From: an uncultured Chloroflexia bacterium
GTDB lineage: Bacteria; Chloroflexota; Limnocylindria; Limnocylindrales; CSP1-4
NCBI GenBank assembly: GCA_963813535.1
Contig: CAWEZH010000003.1
Location: 736,001 to 800,000, forward strand
Direction: 5' to 3'
DNA: 64,000 bases
The translations under genes and the position numbers were made by a program. The notes under the pieces were generated by a model. The model saw only the letters and a program-made list of their open reading frames with translations, was not told the origin of the DNA and did no database searches. Shown here piece by piece: positions 15,082 to 25,957 of this stretch (the stretch's first letter is position 1; the number at the start of each line of letters is the position of its first letter).

Positions 15082-15248
15082 AAGCGGGTCGTTGGACGCC
15101 CGACTGCCGGCGTTGACGACCTCCGCGCCTCGCTCACGCACTTTGAGTGCGTTCGCTCCGGTGCTCGATCGTCGCCTTGGCCTCGGACGCCCAACGACCC
15201 GATTCTCAGGTCGTCACCGCCCTCCGCGCCGATCCTCGATTCGATGGA

Positions 15249-15316
15249 CTGTCCACAGGTTTCCCACAGGGCGCTAACCGGGGACGCGAAAGTCGTGGAC
15301 GCGGTTCGGGGATAAG
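15249..15316. promoter_or_regulatory. Possible DnaA-box cluster upstream of dnaB
   Basis: CTGTCCACA 15249-57, TTTCCCACA 15260-68, and reverse-strand CTTATCCCC 15308-16; all imperfect. Confidence 0.45.
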
Positions 15317-15383
15317 GGCCTATCGGCCGGAGGGCCACTCCGCGAGAGTGGGGACTTCATCCCAGCAGTCATCTCGGGGACAC

Positions 15384-16734
15384 ATGATCGACCGCCTTCC
15401 GCCACAGAGTCTCGAAGCCGAGCAGTCCGTTCTCGGCGCCATCCTCATCGACCGCGATGCCGTCGTCGAGGTCGCCGAGTTCCTGCGGCCCGAGGATTTC
15501 TACCGTCAGGCCAACAGCCGCATCTATGCCGCGATCCTCGACCTGTTCGAGCGCCGCGAGCCGATCGACATCGTCACCGTGGCGGAGGCGCTCGAGCGCC
15601 GCGAGGACCTCGAAGCCGTGGGCGGCCGGGCCTACCTGTCGAGCCTGAGCAACGAGACGCCGACCGCCGTCCACGCAGCGCAGTACGCCCGGATCGTCGA
15701 ACGCAAGGCCGTGCTGCGGAACCTCATCGGTGCCGCCGGCCGCATCGCCGGCATCGGCTACGAGGATCCGGCCGAGATCCAGGAGGCGATCGACCGGGCC
15801 GAGTCGGAGCTGTTCGCCGTCAGCCAGAAGCGCATCGACGCCGGCTTCAGCCCGCTCAAGTCGCTGCTCCACGATGCGTACGACCGTCTCGACTACCTGC
15901 ACACCCACCGCGGTGAGATCTCGGGCGTCCGGAGCGGCTTCACCGACCTCGATGCGCTCACGACGGGACTCCAGCCGAGCGACCTGATCGTGGTCGCAGC
16001 GCGTCCCTCGGTCGGCAAGACGTCGTTCGCCCTCAACGTCGCCGAGCACGCCGCCGTGCGCGAGGGCAAGAGCGTCGGTGTCTTCAGCCTGGAGATGAGC
16101 AAGGAGCAGCTGGTCCTGCGCCTGCTCTCGAGCGTCGCCAACATCGACTCGCAGAAGCTCCGCTCCGGTTTCCTGGACGAGCTCGACTTCACCCGCATCG
16201 CGCCGGCGATGAACTCGCTGTCCGAGGCGCCGATGTACATCGACGACACGCCGAACATCAGCGCCATGGAGCTGCGCACCAAGGCCCGCCGGCTGCAGGC
16301 CGAGGCCGGTCTCGATCTCGTGATCGTCGACTACCTGCAGCTCGATGCAGGCGACGACGACCAACAGGGACGCCAACCGCGTCCAGGAAGTCTCCGAGAT
16401 CTCCCGCGGCCTCAAGGCCCTCGCGCGCGAGCTGTCCGTGCCGGTCATCGCCCTCTCGCAGCTATCACGCCAGCCGGAGATGCGCGAGTCGAAGGAACCG
16501 CGCCTGTCCGACCTGCGCGAGTCGGGGGCGATCGAGCAGGACGCCGACCTCGTGCTCTTCCTGTGGCGCGACAAGGAGCGCGGCAGCGACGATCAGGAGA
16601 CGGACGGCGAGGTCATCAACCTCAAGCTGGCCAAGCATCGCAACGGCCCGACCGGCGAGGTGCAGCTCTGGTTCAAGAAGCGCCAGACGCGCTTCGTGTC
16701 GTACGCGGGCGAGCGCTACGCAGAGGTGAGCTAG
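15384..16734 (+). CDS. dnaB: Replicative DNA helicase (extra G at ~16344 splits the ORF)
   Basis: [29 protein letters not shown]|[24 protein letters not shown]. Confidence 0.95.
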
Positions 16735-18575: not shown

Positions 18576-18787
18576 CCCCGCAGCTAATCGTCGGTTGAGC
18601 GCGTGGCGCCACCATGGCGCCCATGCCCGACCGCCCCTCGCTCGGCTCCGTTGACACGGCGCGCGAGCGGTCGATATCGTTCGCGCCTCCCGAACCGCGT
18701 CAAGCATCGAGCCAATTCATCAGCCGTCATCCGGTTCCGGTCGGTCCGGGCCGCGCGGTCGAGGCGACCTCGTCCAGGAGTGCCCAC

Positions 18788-21700
18788 CTGAGCGACGACG
18801 GTAGCGGTTATCCGATCCAGTTCGCGAAGGTGCAGCGTCCCGCACTCCGCGATGAGACGCTCGAGCGCCCCCGGCTCCTCGACTGGCTGCGCGCCAAGGT
18901 CCACGGGAGGGTCGTCCTGATCCTCGCCGACGCGGGTTACGGCAAGACGACCCTCCTCGCCGACTTTTCGCGCCGGACCCGGATGCGCACGCTCTGGTAC
19001 CGGCTCGATCCCGACGATCGCGACTGGGTCACGTTGCTTCACCACCTCGTCGCCGCCGGTCGGGAGCATGACCCGACCTTCGCTCCGGCGACCGCCGCGT
19101 GCCTCGCCGAGGTCGGAACGGCCGGAACGACACGCGAATTCGCGGTCTCGACCTTCGTCGGGGAGCTCCCGACCATCGCCTCGTCGGGAGCCGTGCTGAT
19201 CTTCGACGACTTCCACCTCGTCGACGACGCACCTGACGTGCGCTACATTGCGCGCGAGCTCGTGGCTCGTGCACCCGAGCGCCTCACGATCGCGTTCGCG
19301 AGCAGACGGGCACCGACGGTGCCGCTATCCAGGTTGCGAACCGTGGGTGACGTGGCCGAGCTCGGCACCGACGACCTGCGATTCGACGCCACCGAAACGG
19401 CGCAACTGTTCACCGAGACGTACGGCCGACAGCTGGATCCCGACGTCCTCGAGGACCTCGCCGCGCGGACGGAAGGGTGGATCGCGTCACTCCAACTCGT
19501 GCAGGCGGCACTCCGGGACCGCACGCCGGGCGAGATCCGTCGCTTCGTGCGAACCCTGAACGGAGCGGACCACGACCTCTACGACTACCTGGCAGAGGAG
19601 GTCGTCGGCGACCTCGACGACGAGCTCCAACGGTTCCTGATGGAGACGTCGATCCTCCAGGTCGTGACACCCGAGTTGGCTGAGGTCGTGTCGGGTCGCG
19701 ACGCGGTCGACGTCGCTCGGCTGACGACCGTGGCCGAGCGGCTCACCCTGCTTGGACGGCTGTCTGGCGCTCCGCGGACCCATCAGCGGTATCACCCCCT
19801 GGTCCGCGGCTTCCTCGAGGCAAGACTTCGGTCGACCGACGGTCCCGAGGCGGTCGCAGGGCTTCACCGTCGTGCTGCGGCAGCCGCGGCCGGGACGGAC
19901 TGGAAGGTGGCGGCCCACCACTACCGGGAGGCCGGCGACACCGAGGCGATGCTCGGCGTCGTGGCGGGCGCGATCCCGACGATCATGGGCAATGGACAAT
20001 ACGCCCTCGCCGAGGGCTTCATCGGCCCGATCTCGGCCGACCGCCGCCCGCTGGGCTTCGACCTGATCCTGAGCCGCGTCGACATGCAGCAGGGCGACTA
20101 CGAGGCGGCGATCGCTGCGAGCCAAGCGGTCCTCGACTCGGGCATCACCGACCCAGTCCAACGCGATCACGCACTGCTCAACCTACGTGACACTCGCCAC
20201 CAACTATGGCGACGGTGATCGAGCCATGGCCTTGGCAAAGGAGTTGAGCGCAACTGCTTCTGATCCGAACCTTCGGGCAATTGCAGACGTGTCAGCCCGC
20301 ATCCTGTCGGTCCAAACGGAGAGTGATCTGAGGCGGTTAACAGGCGGTTGAGAACGATGGCCCAGGCGCAACGTGAGACGAGATCGCATCACTTCGGGGT
20401 CACGATGCTCAATCTTGCGCTGAATTCCCTCGTGCAGGACCGCGTCTACGACTCTTTGGCAGAAGCGACTGAAGCCTTGGAGGCATTGGGTTCGACATCG
20501 GGCCTCGTCGAGCAGTCTGCCGCCCGAGTACTCCTCGCATCTATCTGCCTACGACTTGGGCGGCCATGAGGCGGCCGAGAAATACATCGACGAACTCGGA
20601 TATGGCGCGAAGACATACATTCCAAATGAGGCCTTCGCCGATGCGGCTGGCGCATGCGACTCGTACGGATCCCGACTGTTGGCCACGAGATGCCTCGGTC
20701 GAATCGGCGATTCCTCCATTCACACTCGTGCTGACAGGCGAAATCCTGGCAATCACGCGTGCCCGGATGGCCATTCGTAGCCGTGACGCCGCAGCCGCGG
20801 AGCATGAACTCGAGGGGTATCCGGACGGTGTCCCCACCACGGTCGGCGCCATCGCTGAACTTCAACAGGTGCGCGCCCACCTCGGATTGATCGCGCGGCG
20901 ATCCGAGAGCCGGGAGGTTGTTGGAAGAGGCGTCGTCGACGGCCATCGGCCAAGGCGCCACCGCGATGCGCCGCGTGTGTGACCTTCTCATCGCCGCAAG
21001 TCACGGAGCTGAGGAACTATCCAAAGCCTGTGTTGTCATTGGCCAGTCCACGCCGTGGCATCTGAGCTTTGTCGCGGAGGACATCGTCCCGTCCCTCGAG
21101 CAACTGACAGCGGAAGCGCGATTGGTAGTCGAAGGAGCCGCAAACCTACATCGTGAGCGGTGGCGGACCGCGCTGCGGCAAAGCCTTGACTTCGACATAT
21201 CGACCCAATATCGAGGCAGCGCGCTTGTTGGAGCAGGTGGGCGATCGCTCGGATATCTCGCGACTCCGAGGGATCGCGAGGTCGGCGAGAAGGCGGCCCG
21301 ATGCGGCAGGTCTTGGACGACAGTTGTCGCGGCGACTCGCTGACCGCGTGTATGTCGAGGACCAGGGTCGGATTGCGATCGAAATCGGGGGCCGCGCCGT
21401 CCTGGGTTCGACGGTTCGCCGCAAGGTTCTCGCGATGCTGTCGTACCTAATTACCCGCCCTGAACTCTCAGCCACTCGAGATCAAGTACTCGACGCCATG
21501 TGGCCGGAGCTCGACCCGGAGGTCGCGGTCAACTCTCTCAATCAGACGATCTATTTCCTGCGGAGGGTGCTGGAAGAGAATTACTCGGACGACTTGTCGC
21601 CAGGCTACGTTCACCACGACTCCGACGTGGTGTGGCTCGATGCTGAACTCGTCTCCAGCCGGAGCGTGGAATGCCGGCGAGCTAATTCGGGAGTTTCCGG

Positions 21701-22059
21701 CACGGCCGACTCCGGACGACGTGGAGCGGCTCACGCTCCTCTATCGCGGCCGCTTTGCGCTCGACTTCGAGTACGAGGAGTGGGCTGCCGCGTATCGCGA
21801 CAACCTCCACGCGACATACCTAGAGATAGTCGAGAGGTCCGTGCTGGATGACTTCAGATCGGGCCACTACGACCGAGGGATCACGATCGCGCGGCGAGCC
21901 CTCGAGGTCGACCCAAGCGCAGAGCAAATCGAGGCATGCCTGCTTCGTCTGTACCGCGTAACGGGAGCTCATGCGGCGGCCGCGGAGCAGTACGCCCACT
22001 ACGCAGCGGTGATGCGCGAAGAGGTCGGAGTTGAGCCTCCGCCGCTCGAGACCCTATAG
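18788..22059 (+). CDS. MalT-like STAND ATPase-TPR regulator with C-terminal wHTH/BTAD, broken by ~7 frameshifts (error or pseudogene)
   Basis: ADAGYGKTTLL, LIFDDFH, TEGW, YHPL in 18614-20218; DAMWPELD...NSLNQTIYFLRRVL, LYRGRFA...EEW, ALEVDPSAE, VGVEP in downstream frames; start uncertain. Confidence 0.8.
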
Positions 22060-22079
22060 GGGATAGGTAAGGTGCCGTA

Positions 22080-22109
22080 TTGACCGGTTTACTTAGCCAT
22101 CCCTACAGT
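22080..22109 (+). promoter_or_regulatory. sigma70-type promoter for the riboswitch-peptide operon
   Basis: TTGACC-N18-TACAGT. Confidence 0.6.
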
Positions 22110-22153
22110 CCGGGCACTTGCTAGTACCCCAGTACTAGGAAGAAACGTCAAGA

Positions 22154-22228
22154 CGCTCGGACGCGGCGATGTCTCACCTGAAATGGGCACTTAGGGTGAG
22201 GCGGAGCGACTAGTGCAACCGACCGACT
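22154..22228 (+). ncRNA. Cyclic di-GMP-II riboswitch
   Basis: TCGGA...GATG-stem(GTCTCACCTG/TAGGGTGAGGC)-AAATGGGCACTT loop-GGAGC-TAGTGCAACCGACCGA; GCAC/GTGC pseudoknot; matches the class-II consensus as recalled. Confidence 0.9.
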
Positions 22229-22247
22229 TTCAGTCAGGTCGGTTTTC
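22217..22247 (+). terminator. Riboswitch expression-platform terminator
   Basis: AACCGACC-GAC-TTTCA-GTC-A-GGTCGGTT-TT; the 5' arm overlaps the aptamer 3' strand. Confidence 0.75.
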
Positions 22248-22343
22248 GTGTTCCCCAGAGCACGAAGGCCGCGAAGGAGGAACGCCCGTGGCTCCCGAGT
22301 CCGCCAAGGCCTGGTAGGCGAGTCCCAGCGATGAGGGACCGAA

Positions 22344-22421
22344 TTGGTGCGCATCCTCGTTGCGCTCTCGAGCGTGGCGATGATCGCCCTGGCTGGAGGG
22401 GCTTCTCTTAGAGGCTTCTAG
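22344..22421 (+). CDS. Unannotated small peptide precursor MVRILVALSSVAMIALAGGASLRGF
   Basis: TTG/GTG start after GAGGGA, TAG at 22419-21; hydrophobic leader + GGA + short core; lies between the riboswitch and the HD-GYP gene. Confidence 0.75.
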   Translation: MVRILVALSSVAMIALAGGASLRGF

Positions 22422-22489
22422 TACTGATGGCCCATTACCTCACTCGCGGCGCTGGCCGTAGAGTGAGGAAAGAGGCCGATCAGGTAACG

Positions 22490-23896
22490 ATGCCCAAGTC
22501 CCTCAAGCTTTACGTCGCAGTTGTCGTGGTCATCGGCGCCTTGGCGCTGGTGGCCGCGACTTTCGTGTTCCCGCCGAAACCCGGCATCGCGATCGATCTG
22601 CCGGGTTCTACTGGCAGCCCGACGACGCCTGAATACGCGCTGGGCGTGCTGTATTGGATCGCGCTCACGCTAATCGGATCTGCATTTCCAGTTCAGCTTC
22701 CCCGGGGCACCCAACAGGCGGTCGGAATCGCCCCGATCATGGGGTCGCTGTTCCTCGGCGGACCCGCGGTGGCCGGCTGGGTGGCTGCGATCGGGACGAC
22801 AGAGCTTCGCGAACTCAGAGGTCGTATTCCCTGGTACGGGACCCTGGCAAATCATGCGGCGCTGGTGCTGCCGGCAATCGTCGCGGGCAGCGTTCGCGAA
22901 GGACTGCTTGTGCTCGGTGCGCGGCGTGGCGTGGGACTTCGCTGTCCGGAATGGTCGCCGCTTTTGTGTTTATCGCCGGGAACCTCGCGCTGGTCTCATC
23001 TGGCACTTGGCCTTCGGACCGGACAGTCACCGAGGGCCGTACTCCTTGGGGACATCCGCGGAATCACAGGCGGGGTTATTGCCCTTGCGCCTCTCTCCTG
23101 GCTAATGACTGTCGTCTATGCCGTCCAGTGGTGGGCCACCGCCCTGTTCGCCGTTCCCCTGTATTCGACCCGGCTGGCGTACGCGCGCTTCATCGAGATG
23201 CGCGAGATGTTCACCCAGACGATCGGTGCGCTCGCCGAGGCCGTCGACAAGCGCGACCCGTTCACGGCCAAGCACAGCCATCGGGTGAAGGAGATCGCGG
23301 TCGACATCGGCCGCGTGATGCACGTGACCGACGCGGAGCTGGAAGCGCTCGAGTGGGGCGGCCTGCTGCACGACGTCGGCAAGATCGGCGTCCCGGATCG
23401 CGTCCTGCTCAAGCAGGAGCGCCTGAACAAGGACGAGCGGATGATCATGAACGCGCACCCGGTCCTCGGTGCGCAGATCATCGCCCCGGTCACGAAGCTC
23501 GCTCCGGAGCTTCCGATCATCCGCCACCACCACGAGTGGTACAACGGCTCGGGCTATCCGGACCGCCTGATCGGCGACGAGATCCCCAAGCTCGCCCGCA
23601 TCCTCCACGTGGCCGACGCATTCGAGGCGATGACCGCCGCCCGCCCCTACCGGATGACCCCGCTGACGGCGGAGCAGGCGCTCGCCGAGCTGCGCAAGTT
23701 CGCCGGCATCCAGTTCGACCCGGTCGTGGTCGACGCCTTCGTCAACACCCACCACGTCGAGGGCGTCCAGGATCCGGGCCGCACCGTCCAGCCGCGGCCG
23801 ATCCCGCTCCTCGGCCAGGCTGCCGCCACCCGGCTGGCCGACCCACCCGCCACCGGCACGATGCCGTCCACCGCCAAGGCACCCGAGCAAGTCTGA
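22490..23896 (+). CDS. Membrane-sensor HD-GYP cyclic-di-GMP phosphodiesterase
   Basis: N-terminal multi-TM region; HS.RV, HDVGKIG, HHHEWYNGSGYP, ADAFEAMT..RPYR; probable compensating indels at 22920-23000. Confidence 0.92.
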   Translation: MPKSLKLYVAVVVVIGALALVAATFVFPPKPGIAIDLPGSTGSPTTPEYALGVLYWIALTLIGSAFPVQLPRGTQQAVGIAPIMGSLFLGGPAVAGWVAAIGTTELRELRGRIPWYGTLANHAALVLPAIVAGSVREGLLVLGARRGVGLRCPEWSPLLCLSPGTSRWSHLALGLRTGQSPRAVLLGDIRGITGGVIALAPLSWLMTVVYAVQWWATALFAVPLYSTRLAYARFIEMREMFTQTIGALAEAVDKRDPFTAKHSHRVKEIAVDIGRVMHVTDAELEALEWGGLLHDVGKIGVPDRVLLKQERLNKDERMIMNAHPVLGAQIIAPVTKLAPELPIIRHHHEWYNGSGYPDRLIGDEIPKLARILHVADAFEAMTAARPYRMTPLTAEQALAELRKFAGIQFDPVVVDAFVNTHHVEGVQDPGRTVQPRPIPLLGQAAATRLADPPATGTMPSTAKAPEQV

Positions 23897-23929: not shown

Positions 23930-25957
23930 ATGCTGATCGGCGGGATCCTCCTCGGCCTGCTCCTCGGCCTTCTCGCCGGCGGAAGCCTCCGGAACCTCGC
24001 CGAGATCCGGCTCCGCTGGACCGGGCTGCTCGTCGCCGCCGTGGTCATCCGGTTCGCGACCGAAGCCGCGCTCGACGCCCAGATCGGTGCCGTCGAGGCG
24101 CTCCGGCTGCCGCTGCTCGCCAGCGCGTTCGGGATGCTGCTCGTCACGCTCTGGGTCAACCGGTCGTACCCGGGCCTGAGCCTGGCGTTCCTGGGCGTCC
24201 TGGCGAACGCGCTCGTGATCCTCGCGAACGGCGGGTACATGCCGATCTGGGCGCCGGCGCTTGCCGCCGCCGGTCTGACCGAGGCGGACGTCAACCGCGC
24301 GTTCCACACGATCGTCGACGCCGGAGCGTCCGACTTCCTCGGTCGATTGCTGATCCTCGGGGACGTCATCCCGGTGCCGGTCGACGTCATCCGAAACGTC
24401 TACTCGCTTGGCGACCTGTTCCTGACACTCGGCCTCGCATTCTTCCTGTTCGCCGGGGTCGTGCGCGTCCCGTCGGTCATCGAGGAGGAGGAAGACGCGG
24501 AGCTCCGGCGTCGCCTCGCCGCCGAGCAGGCGGGACAGGGGAGTCGATCGGGCCTCGCCCCGGGTCTGGAACGGACCGCGGCGCTCCAGCGGCCGACCGT
24601 GCTCGGCGCCGGCCGTCCGCGGCTGGCCGGACCGAGCGCCAACCCGGTCGCGGAGACGCCACCGCCGCGCGGCGCGATCGCGATCCCGGGGCTCACCCCG
24701 GATGTCCTCGCTCGCCTCCGACGCCATCCGTATGTCCGCCTCGCGCTCAACGGGTCGTTCAGCGCACTGTGGTCCGGCCAGCTGATCTCGTTGTTCGGCG
24801 ACCGGGTCCACCAGGTGGCGATCGCGGCGATCGTGTTCGTCCTGACCGACTCGCCGATCGCGGTCGCCCTGGTGTTCGTCGCGGCGACGCTCCCCAACCT
24901 GGTGTTCGGGCCGATCGCGGGGACCTTCGTCGATCGCTGGGACCACCGCGAGGTCCTGGTCGTGAGCGACATCCTGCGTGCCGCGGTCGTCTTCGTGATG
25001 CCGATCGTAGCCTCGCTGAACATCTGGCTGGTCTATCCGCTCGCGTTCCTCCTGACCACGATCTCGATCTTCTTCCGGCCCGCGCGGGTCGCGATCCTGC
25101 CCCGGCTCGTGCGGGAGGACGAGCTGCTCACCGCGAACTCGGCGCTCTGGATCGGGGAGACGTTGGTGGACGTCATCGGCTTCCCGCTGGCCGGGCTGTT
25201 CGTGGCGCTCGTCGCCGACGCAGTGTCGATCGCGTTCTGGTTCGACGGCGCAACCTACCTCGCCTCGGCGCTCCTGCTGAGCACGCTCATCCCGCGGCCG
25301 GTCCGTACCGAGGCTCCGACTGGTGCGACCGCCGGCGCGACGACGGGCGGGTTCCGTGCGGAACTCATGGAGGGCTGGCGGTTCCTGCGCAACGACGCCG
25401 TGCTGCTCGCGAATACGCTCCAGGCCGTGGTCGCCCAGCTCACGATCGGCGTCCTCTTCGGTCAGACGATCGTCTACGCGGAACGGGTGTTCGGGCCGCA
25501 GGGCTACAACGGGCTCGCCGTCTACGGCTTCATCGAGGGCAGCCAGGGCGCCGGCAACCTCATCGGCGGGTTCGTGATCGGTCTGGTCGGCGCCGGACTG
25601 GCGAAGGGCAAGTTGATCATCGCCGGCTACACGGTCTTCGGCCTGTTGACCACCGCGATGGCGCTGTCAGGCGACCTCGCCGTCGTCCTGGCCATGGCCT
25701 TCGGCATCGGCATCGCCAACATGGTCTTCATCATCCCGAGCCAGACGCTGTTCCAGGAGCGCACACCGGGCAATCTCATCGGCCGGGTCGTGAGCTTCCG
25801 GTTCTCGCTGGTGTCCGGCGCGATGACGCTGTCGATCGGGCTCGGCGGCGTGCTTTCCGAAGCCATCGGCGTGACAACGACCATCGCGGCGTTCGGCATC
25901 GTCACCGCGGTGGCCGGCATCGCCGGCTGGTTCGTGCCGGCAGTCCGCGAAGCGTGA
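23930..25957 (+). CDS. DUF5317-like membrane domain fused to an MFS (DHA3/EntS-like) transporter
   Basis: GGSLRNL..IRLRW, N..VILANGGYMP, LGDVIP, YSLGD in aa 1-180; LWSGQLISLFGD, GTFVDRWD, VVSDILRA in the MFS part. Confidence 0.85.
   Translation: MLIGGILLGLLLGLLAGGSLRNLAEIRLRWTGLLVAAVVIRFATEAALDAQIGAVEALRLPLLASAFGMLLVTLWVNRSYPGLSLAFLGVLANALVILANGGYMPIWAPALAAAGLTEADVNRAFHTIVDAGASDFLGRLLILGDVIPVPVDVIRNVYSLGDLFLTLGLAFFLFAGVVRVPSVIEEEEDAELRRRLAAEQAGQGSRSGLAPGLERTAALQRPTVLGAGRPRLAGPSANPVAETPPPRGAIAIPGLTPDVLARLRRHPYVRLALNGSFSALWSGQLISLFGDRVHQVAIAAIVFVLTDSPIAVALVFVAATLPNLVFGPIAGTFVDRWDHREVLVVSDILRAAVVFVMPIVASLNIWLVYPLAFLLTTISIFFRPARVAILPRLVREDELLTANSALWIGETLVDVIGFPLAGLFVALVADAVSIAFWFDGATYLASALLLSTLIPRPVRTEAPTGATAGATTGGFRAELMEGWRFLRNDAVLLANTLQAVVAQLTIGVLFGQTIVYAERVFGPQGYNGLAVYGFIEGSQGAGNLIGGFVIGLVGAGLAKGKLIIAGYTVFGLLTTAMALSGDLAVVLAMAFGIGIANMVFIIPSQTLFQERTPGNLIGRVVSFRFSLVSGAMTLSIGLGGVLSEAIGVTTTIAAFGIVTAVAGIAGWFVPAVREA

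Follow-up and report, generated by a model that had tools for sequence, protein, structure and literature searches.

The MASE9 domain was defined by Galperin and Chou, who left its ligand open and predicted that it binds within the membrane (bioRxiv 10.1101/2021.11.05.467447). Thermotoga maritima TM1467 and Streptomyces venezuelae HdgA are examples of MASE9–HD-GYP proteins (bioRxiv 10.1101/2021.11.05.467447; PMC6205966); hdgA and hdgB were described without a phenotype, and it was suggested that the activating signals were missing under the conditions used (Al-Bassam et al., PMC6205966). The available parts of the published description of these phosphodiesterases mention neither a peptide gene nor DUF5317, and the word ‘peptide’ does not occur in the main text of the preprint. 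The locus described here shares with them the pairing of a membrane domain with HD-GYP (MASE9 is also carried by GGDEF-EAL proteins), and differs in that its own membrane domain falls under the Pfam cut-off.

A further likeness concerns the RNA. According to the available part of PMC13724677, the CD1980.2 family of Clostridioides difficile (58 aa) is controlled by class I c-di-GMP OFF switches and affects sporulation, and class II switches activate expression in that organism. In both cases a gene for a small membrane-associated protein lies directly behind a c-di-GMP riboswitch with premature termination. Here, however, the product has 29 aa, the switch is of class II and a predicted ON switch, and the operon brings its own sensor and DUF5317; the comparison with PMC13724677 is by description, not by sequence. 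As for the riboswitch itself, it is a full-length member of RF01786 above the gathering score, distinguished by preceding two peptide genes and a predicted c-di-GMP phosphodiesterase.

DUF5317 is best set beside LspA (Peptidase_A8; 5DIR, 6RYP). Each is a small membrane protein with two aspartates about 18–19 residues apart near the last helix, and in each case the hydrophobic helix of the substrate, or proposed substrate, ends in small residues. However, the family peptide has Ala where the lipobox has the lipidated Cys, and DUF5317 has NGGxMP in place of the Peptidase_A8 motif GNxxDR, which is absent from its alignment. The genome retains a separate, true LspA.

Gram-positive peptide signalling operates via membrane receptors, as in agr AIP/AgrC and ComC/ComD, and the Rap/Phr-type peptides are penta- and hexapeptides. 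Our locus resembles these systems in placing a small precursor, a candidate processing enzyme and a candidate receptor in one operon, and in the lineage-variable, basic-aromatic C-terminal tail of 5–6 residues. It differs in having no homologous component by Pfam or NCBIfam, in a proposed output through c-di-GMP turnover rather than a response regulator or Rap/RRNPP protein, and in a tail that has, in the window, neither a ring-forming residue nor a follower. In the literature searched, whose coverage left most subscription journals outside, we found no description of a peptide–MASE9–DUF5317 module and no mention of DUF5317.

The window, the whole stretch of 64,000 nucleotides that was analysed, comes from an uncultured Chloroflexia bacterium whose assembly has 3 contigs and is 92.9% complete. 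Its relevant features are as follows.

18614..22059, + strand: MalT-like STAND ATPase with C-terminal winged-helix and BTAD output (NCBIfam MalT, E 9.5e-55; Pfam Trans_reg_C, BTAD)
22080..22109, + strand: sigma70-like promoter consensus, 9/12 (1 found against 0.2 expected; a consensus match alone)
22121..22138, + strand: short palindrome or hairpin, likely the 5' end of the leader (z -3.5; recurs in genus loci)
22150..22233, + strand: c-di-GMP-II riboswitch aptamer, RF01786 (64.4 bits against gathering 53.5, E 5.6e-14)
22217..22246, + strand: intrinsic-terminator-like stem with short U tract, from RNA folding
22288..22317, + strand: 9-codon uORF with GTG start, ending K-A-W (strong SD at 22274-22280; no hydrophobic stretch)
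22331..22421, + strand: 29-codon peptide precursor with basic N-region, hydrophobic helix, GG↓A (the arrow marks the candidate cut) and tail ASLRGF
22424..22483, + strand: long RNA hairpin between precursor stop and sensor start, no U tract (-39.2 kcal/mol, z -5.8)
22490..23896, + strand: membrane MASE9-like HD-GYP protein, predicted c-di-GMP phosphodiesterase (Pfam HD_5, E 2.5e-39)
23930..25957, + strand: DUF5317, a candidate aspartic peptidase, fused to an MFS transporter (Pfam DUF5317, E 1.2e-23; MFS_1, MFS_3)

The order in the operon is riboswitch with terminator, uORF, precursor, hairpin, MASE9-like HD-GYP gene and DUF5317–MFS gene; the STAND regulator gene, split into several frames in this assembly, is the upstream neighbour. 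GC content falls to 60–66% over 20000-23499, against 67–74% in the surroundings, and this stretch covers the C-terminal half of the regulator, the leader, the peptides and the sensor domain.

Is the precursor a gene at all? A sequence-only reading of the window had reported a basic residue, a hydrophobic helix, GGA and SLRGF-stop at 22331-22421, and all are present in the frame 22335-22421: the basic residue is Arg, the hydrophobic run is 14 residues long, and GGA, with an A-L-A motif immediately ahead of it, leads into SLRGF and the stop. ATG 22331 opens a frame that departs from the hydrophobic one, which also has in-frame starts at TTG 22344 and GTG 22347. These starts, like the riboswitch, the uORF, the MASE9-like sensor and DUF5317, all of which give the peptide its context, had no place in that reading. 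It had proposed one A too many near 22343, the removal of which gives 29 aa from ATG 22331, and this is borne out by four aligned relatives (L011, L016, L003, L014) that have one base fewer at 22342/22343. The HD-GYP segment of L011 is 93% identical to the window's, and the same shorter form recurs in single contigs of runs X7 and X18, which represent relatives, not the source sample. The assembly also carries frameshifts in dnaB (15147-16734) and the STAND regulator (18614-22059) and a local double frameshift in the HD-GYP membrane domain (~22900-23000); indel errors thus appear to be common in it. Given the shorter relatives and the breaks in dnaB and the flanking genes, the extra A at 22342/22343 is most likely an assembly indel.

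The ORF is also distinctive. A regular expression for its anatomy has 3 matches in the 3.28-Mb genome, 2 of them Gly-rich low-complexity stretches, and a family profile, built to include 9 same-genus relatives, picks out only this ORF (E 5e-9, next best 0.98). It falls into no Pfam or NCBIfam family. We rejected the view that the peptide is itself a lipoprotein and LspA substrate, since it has Ala at +1 and no Cys in the window's copy. The hexamer TAGTAC occurs both in the 5' leader palindrome (22122-22138) and at the precursor stop codon (22419-22424), and at the latter it is invariant in 21/21 aligned genus loci.

With the downstream HD-GYP protein as query, 61 related genomes yielded 30 loci, 6 of which stop short of the upstream region. 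The precursor is recognisable in 23 of the 24 informative same-genus loci, the remaining one being a run of N; 16 copies are intact 29-codon ORFs and 7 have frame breaks. For the 16 intact copies, a set that leaves out the window copy and the 6 other broken ones, the 29 codons together give a dN/dS of 0.133, with 0.36 for codons 1–11, 0.043 for codons 12–23 and 0.046 for the tail. In the +2 frame the value is 4.1, and none of the 16 copies is open in the +1 frame. The precursor ORF is a real, conserved gene under purifying selection, as the sequence-only reading had supposed. The tail is identical in 15/16 intact copies, among loci chosen by similarity to this allele.

What controls this gene? 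The TATTGACC hexamer region of the promoter-like site recurs in genus loci. The RF01786 match spans model positions 1–84 of 84, and a c-di-GMP-II riboswitch passes the gathering score in 12/20 family and class loci. The terminator uses the 3' strand of P1 (22223-22226) within its left arm, which makes the P1 and terminator folds mutually exclusive; the ligand-free minimum free energy is -41.9 kcal/mol with the terminator against -23.3 with P1 enforced. Without ligand the RNA should therefore fold into the terminator, which predicts an ON switch: high c-di-GMP would turn the operon on. In five RNA-library runs of relatives (X3, X16-X19), contigs extend over the riboswitch and take in parts of the peptide region; a single contig runs from the terminator through the uORF to the precursor. 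Read against no silent stretch, this coverage does not amount to proof of transcription, and its absence upstream of ~22135 carries no meaning.

The C-terminal end of the uORF echoes the precursor tail. Among 24 genus loci, 19 have a uORF of 9–17 codons ending K-G/A-W/Y, with an in-frame internal duplication in 2, and class-wide the endings are KGW, KGF, RVW and KSW. As its last 5 codons have a dN/dS of 0.74, selection on the protein is no more than suggested by the kept basic-x-aromatic ending. The uORF is likely either a leaderless copy of the precursor tail or a device that couples translation of the precursor. For the hairpin behind the precursor, z lies between -2.8 and -6.9 in 7 genus loci picked by hand and below -2 in 6/9 from an unselected run; RNAalifold on a MAFFT alignment returned no common structure. 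Outside the genus, intergenic stretches have z below -2 in only 10/36 cases (coding controls, 4/45), and this hairpin is therefore not family-wide.

The HD and HHExxNGxGYP motifs are intact in the window's HD-GYP protein, the local double frameshift being confined to the membrane part. Against a MASE9 (PF20972) cut-off of 24.3 bits, the intact relative L003 scores 19.7 bits (E 9e-4) and the frameshifted window protein gives no match; judged by sequence, the membrane domain is MASE9-like and its membership borderline. DUF5317 (PF17248) reaches 84.2 bits against a cut-off of 25, with both conserved Asp present. In a phylum sample, DUF5317 open frames above 600 aa occur only in this class. The genome's second DUF5317 is a stand-alone gene (L031:1426-2256; G000:C2:1731636-1732466), followed by a 33-codon peptide gene of another subtype, with tail EAARRWN.

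How widely is the peptide found with these partners? DUF5317 is present in 63/201 genomes of the window's phylum. For peptides we analysed the best 80 of 358 DUF5317 matches in GTDB species genomes, in records titled Bipolaricaulota, Thermotogae, Bacillota, Actinomycetota, Chloroflexota, Spirochaetaceae and Desulfobacteria. A filter for small ORFs that have a basic start, a hydrophobic helix and an aromatic tail found a match near 42 of these 80 loci (39 credible by eye), against 1/80 random 8.5-kb windows of this genome, a control that is GC-rich and so understates false matches in AT-rich loci. By eye, 3 of the 42 look spurious, and the filter missed 3 further true ones; all matches but one lie on DUF5317's strand. 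The family anatomy is a basic start, a hydrophobic helix and G↓A-x-x-K/R-W/F, and in 45/46 hand-assembled cases the peptide ends 19–262 nt 5' of a membrane HD-GYP gene. From 123 candidate neighbour genes of DUF5317, 60 were scanned: 31 are HD-GYP proteins, 16 of them with a MASE9 match (E up to 0.001), including 7 that pass the cut-off; another 17 are proteins of the GAF, GGDEF-EAL or kinase type, with membrane domains that align in 12 cases with the MASE9-type alignment at 99.4%. The linkage of this selected, riboswitch-led operon gene to MASE9-type sensors and DUF5317 is family-wide.

DUF5317 is not obligatory. Among 201 genomes of the phylum of G260, 57 have DUF5317 and MASE9, 18 DUF5317 alone, 28 MASE9 alone and 98 neither, kin among them not being independent and four of the genomes being flagged as unpublished; 28 of the 85 MASE9-positive genomes thus have no DUF5317 match. 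Each of the two families scores in two of 14 control genomes, and for both families these are T. thermophilus and T. maritima. A credible peptide accompanies 9/20 DUF5317 loci in the phylum of G260. In the converse test, judged by eye, it accompanies 12/20 MASE9 loci from genomes with no DUF5317 match, and it therefore tracks MASE9 as well as DUF5317. These counts include kin: 9/45 family peptides belong to one genus, and 7/12 DUF5317-less cases look like one lineage. An AT-rich Actinomycetota lineage with no DUF5317 match (L142, L143, L147, L149, L151, L155, L160) has a peptide that lacks G↓A, and 3' of its MASE9–HD-GYP gene lies a 171-aa SpoIIM-like membrane gene (recognised by Atlas features, below threshold), possibly a replacement for the processing enzyme and to be taken as a lead only. 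In L145, L146, L152, L153 and L154 a second, degenerate membrane HD-type gene follows MASE9–HD-GYP, as in Streptomyces hdgA–hdgB.

The tails vary by lineage (within the class, ASLRGF, ASFKGW, ASYRPF, AGVRPF and AGYGLF), and the gene is present in tandem copies in L080, L142, L149, L166 and L169. In 11/19 further Chloroflexota loci the first ORF after a class I c-di-GMP riboswitch encodes a paralogous peptide, with a tail of the AGIRW type; L089 has such a pair too, 1/20 in its set, which makes 12 loci altogether (L089, L092, L094, L106, L112, L119, L123, L128, L133, L138, L139, L141). These genes start ~33–40 nt behind class I c-di-GMP or c-di-GMP-I-GGC riboswitches, and a MASE9-like GAF-GGDEF-EAL gene is near most of the 12. 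Both peptide subtypes stand in tandem in L128 and L133, and L139 has two riboswitch–peptide units. With class II at loci of the window's type and class I at the paralogues, two riboswitch classes would control the family. Varied tails, tandem copies and riboswitch-only paralogues would fit a dosage-controlled product better than a fixed subunit. Many precursors of L062-L100 (Bipolaricaulota-type), L099 and L109 start M-K-W, repeating the K-W of the tail, and these starts resemble the uORF repeat in Limnocylindria.

If the peptide is cut, where, and by what? G↓A or A↓A, 4 or 5 residues before the tail aromatic, is present in 35/45 family peptides (residue -1 is Gly in 32 and Ala in 3), and the GG↓A site named in the sequence-only reading is the most constant register before the tail. 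By script, G↓A is kept in 30/34 peptides beside DUF5317, as against 2/12 in genomes with no DUF5317 match. The signal-peptide-like anatomy, the constant register and the short K/R-aromatic tail together suggest, at the level of sequence, that the precursor is cleaved. A cut at GG↓A specifically by DUF5317 has a competitor, since A-L-A before the GG would also allow signal peptidase I to cut there. On the other hand, signal peptidase I is not known to accept Pro at +1, and Pro directly follows the conserved Ala in 8 family peptides, so that a cut by this enzyme after that Ala is unlikely.

DUF5317 may be an enzyme of the LspA kind. The Asp of LxD is conserved in 252/253 alignment rows and that of SxGD in 240/240, together with several invariant Asn and a conserved Met-Pro. 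The two Asp align with the VxDF and FNxAD aspartates of LspA, at an hhalign probability of 3% (local) or 1% (global). The AlphaFold model of DUF5317 has pLDDT 93. In a structural search of 48,161 chains, LspA 5dir ranked 5th (Z 5.3, rmsd 2.9, 92 aligned, 22%) and 6ryp 17th (Z 4.8, rmsd 4.4, 96 aligned, 19%), the two LspA chains having the highest identities among the top matches; a Z of 5.3 lies in the range of unrelated helical bundles, and 4 unrelated chains rank above 5dir. Pfam Peptidase_A8 scores 10.5 bits on DUF5317 (E 0.69, cut-off 25). With the DUF5317 model, Foldseek gave nothing at E 0.001 or better, and LspA is missing from the 50 matches listed; an HMM search of PDB sequences gave chance-level matches only, and the ESM Atlas no usable match. 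Three weak signals agree and make homology a possibility, not more; by score and motif DUF5317 is no member of Peptidase_A8, but it may work like one. As to geometry, the N-terminus of an MFS domain is normally cytoplasmic, and the fusion would bring the second DUF5317 Asp to the outward-facing tip of the final helix, which is also the place expected for G↓A in an N-in peptide. A complex prediction for the sensor domain and peptide of L004 (ipSAE 0.02 and 0.07, mark 0.32) counts neither way.

How might these parts act together? We give somewhat better than an even chance to the view that DUF5317 cuts the precursor at G↓A and that the released hexapeptide, ASLRGF, tunes the MASE9 enzyme. High c-di-GMP would let transcription pass the terminator, and the 29-residue precursor would insert in the membrane, N-in/C-out. 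DUF5317 would cut it at GG↓A on the membrane's outer face, and the hexapeptide would bind to the adjacent HD-GYP protein at its MASE9-like domain, altering the hydrolysis of c-di-GMP by this protein. Peptide, peptidase and phosphodiesterase would then form a feedback loop, negative if the peptide activates. Against cleavage stand the tail, which is near-invariant in the genus, unlike hypervariable pheromones, and the third of MASE9-positive genomes in which DUF5317 was not found. The sensor step is opposed by the L031 DUF5317–peptide pair, as no MASE9-like gene besides the window's was detected in the assembly. L031 also has no riboswitch above gathering.

We extend this only tentatively, and with the chances somewhat against us, to a class of peptide signalling assembled over several phyla from orphan parts: a G↓A-x-x-K/R-W/F precursor; an LspA-like DUF5317 that cuts non-lipidated precursors; a MASE9 receptor wired to c-di-GMP phosphodiesterases, cyclases and kinases; a loop closed by two c-di-GMP riboswitch classes; and a second version of the tail, made without a leader, that acts inside the cell in Limnocylindria.

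What if the product is never cut? It would then be a single-pass small membrane protein that packs on the MASE9 sensor, or on a MASE9–DUF5317 complex, and sets its activity, with the riboswitch setting the dose. MgrB and SafA are small membrane proteins that act in this manner. Constraint on the helix equals that on the tail, which exceeds what a signal sequence that is thrown away would require, and the gene keeps its link to MASE9 sensors in genomes in which no DUF5317 was found. MASE9 ligand binding is predicted inside the membrane (in the available part of bioRxiv 10.1101/2021.11.05.467447), and the small membrane-associated proteins of C. difficile are likewise under c-di-GMP riboswitches (in the available part of PMC13724677). 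An uncut partner sits poorly, however, with a G↓A register of small residues that stays fixed ahead of a polar tail across many phyla, with the loss of G↓A where DUF5317 is not found, with the invariant paired Asp of DUF5317 and with a leaderless uORF that repeats the tail only. We regard it as improbable, yet deserving of real weight.

Decidedly less probable is a scheme in which a housekeeping signal peptidase makes the cut, the MFS domain exports the peptide or takes it up, the upstream STAND-BTAD protein reads it inside the cell in the manner of Rap/Phr or RRNPP, and DUF5317 has another role. The A-x-A motif before GG in this genus would suit such a peptidase, the operon is flanked here by the gene for the STAND-BTAD protein and by the MFS fusion, and the leaderless uORF product could act in the cytoplasm. 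However, the Pro after the conserved Ala in 8 relatives speaks against that peptidase, and BTAD homologues were found in 27 of the loci analysed, all from this genus or family; in the phylum sample, long DUF5317 frames likewise occur in this class only, whereas the peptide–MASE9 link crosses phyla. The STAND protein itself, a fragmented gene whose middle was scanned in part, matches MalT, Trans_reg_C and BTAD and no Rap/RRNPP family.

Could the window's copy, as distinct from the family, be a true pseudogene, or a 24–25 residue form made from TTG 22344 or GTG 22347? The extra base is present in the assembly and these in-frame starts exist, but dnaB and the neighbours are frameshifted too, the remainder of the ORF shows no decay, and 7/7 broken genus copies come from 3–20-contig assemblies whereas 4 copies from 60–430-contig assemblies are intact; we think this very unlikely. 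The AIP-like lactone that the sequence-only reading had entertained, closed through Ser, is scarcely credible: five residues from Ser fit the AIP ring, which has five, but Ser is at +2 in only 11/35 family members, a search of the genome, 92.9% complete, turned up no AgrB, neither NCBIfam nor Pfam gives an AgrD-type match, and no C-terminal follower is present, as that reading had itself remarked.

The module is thus a candidate for peptide-to-membrane-sensor signalling built from orphan parts. For MASE9, a widespread sensor domain without a known ligand, the locus offers a six-residue candidate ligand, ASLRGF, together with a candidate processing enzyme, DUF5317, whose two aspartates can be tested, and a predicted feedback switch. 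Since DUF5317 and MASE9 score in Thermus thermophilus and Thermotoga maritima, and HdgA is found in S. venezuelae, the idea is testable in cultured hosts. If true, it would extend the signal peptidase II fold to non-lipoprotein substrates, and c-di-GMP turnover would gain a direct peptide input in lineages for which the literature searched yielded no described peptide signalling.
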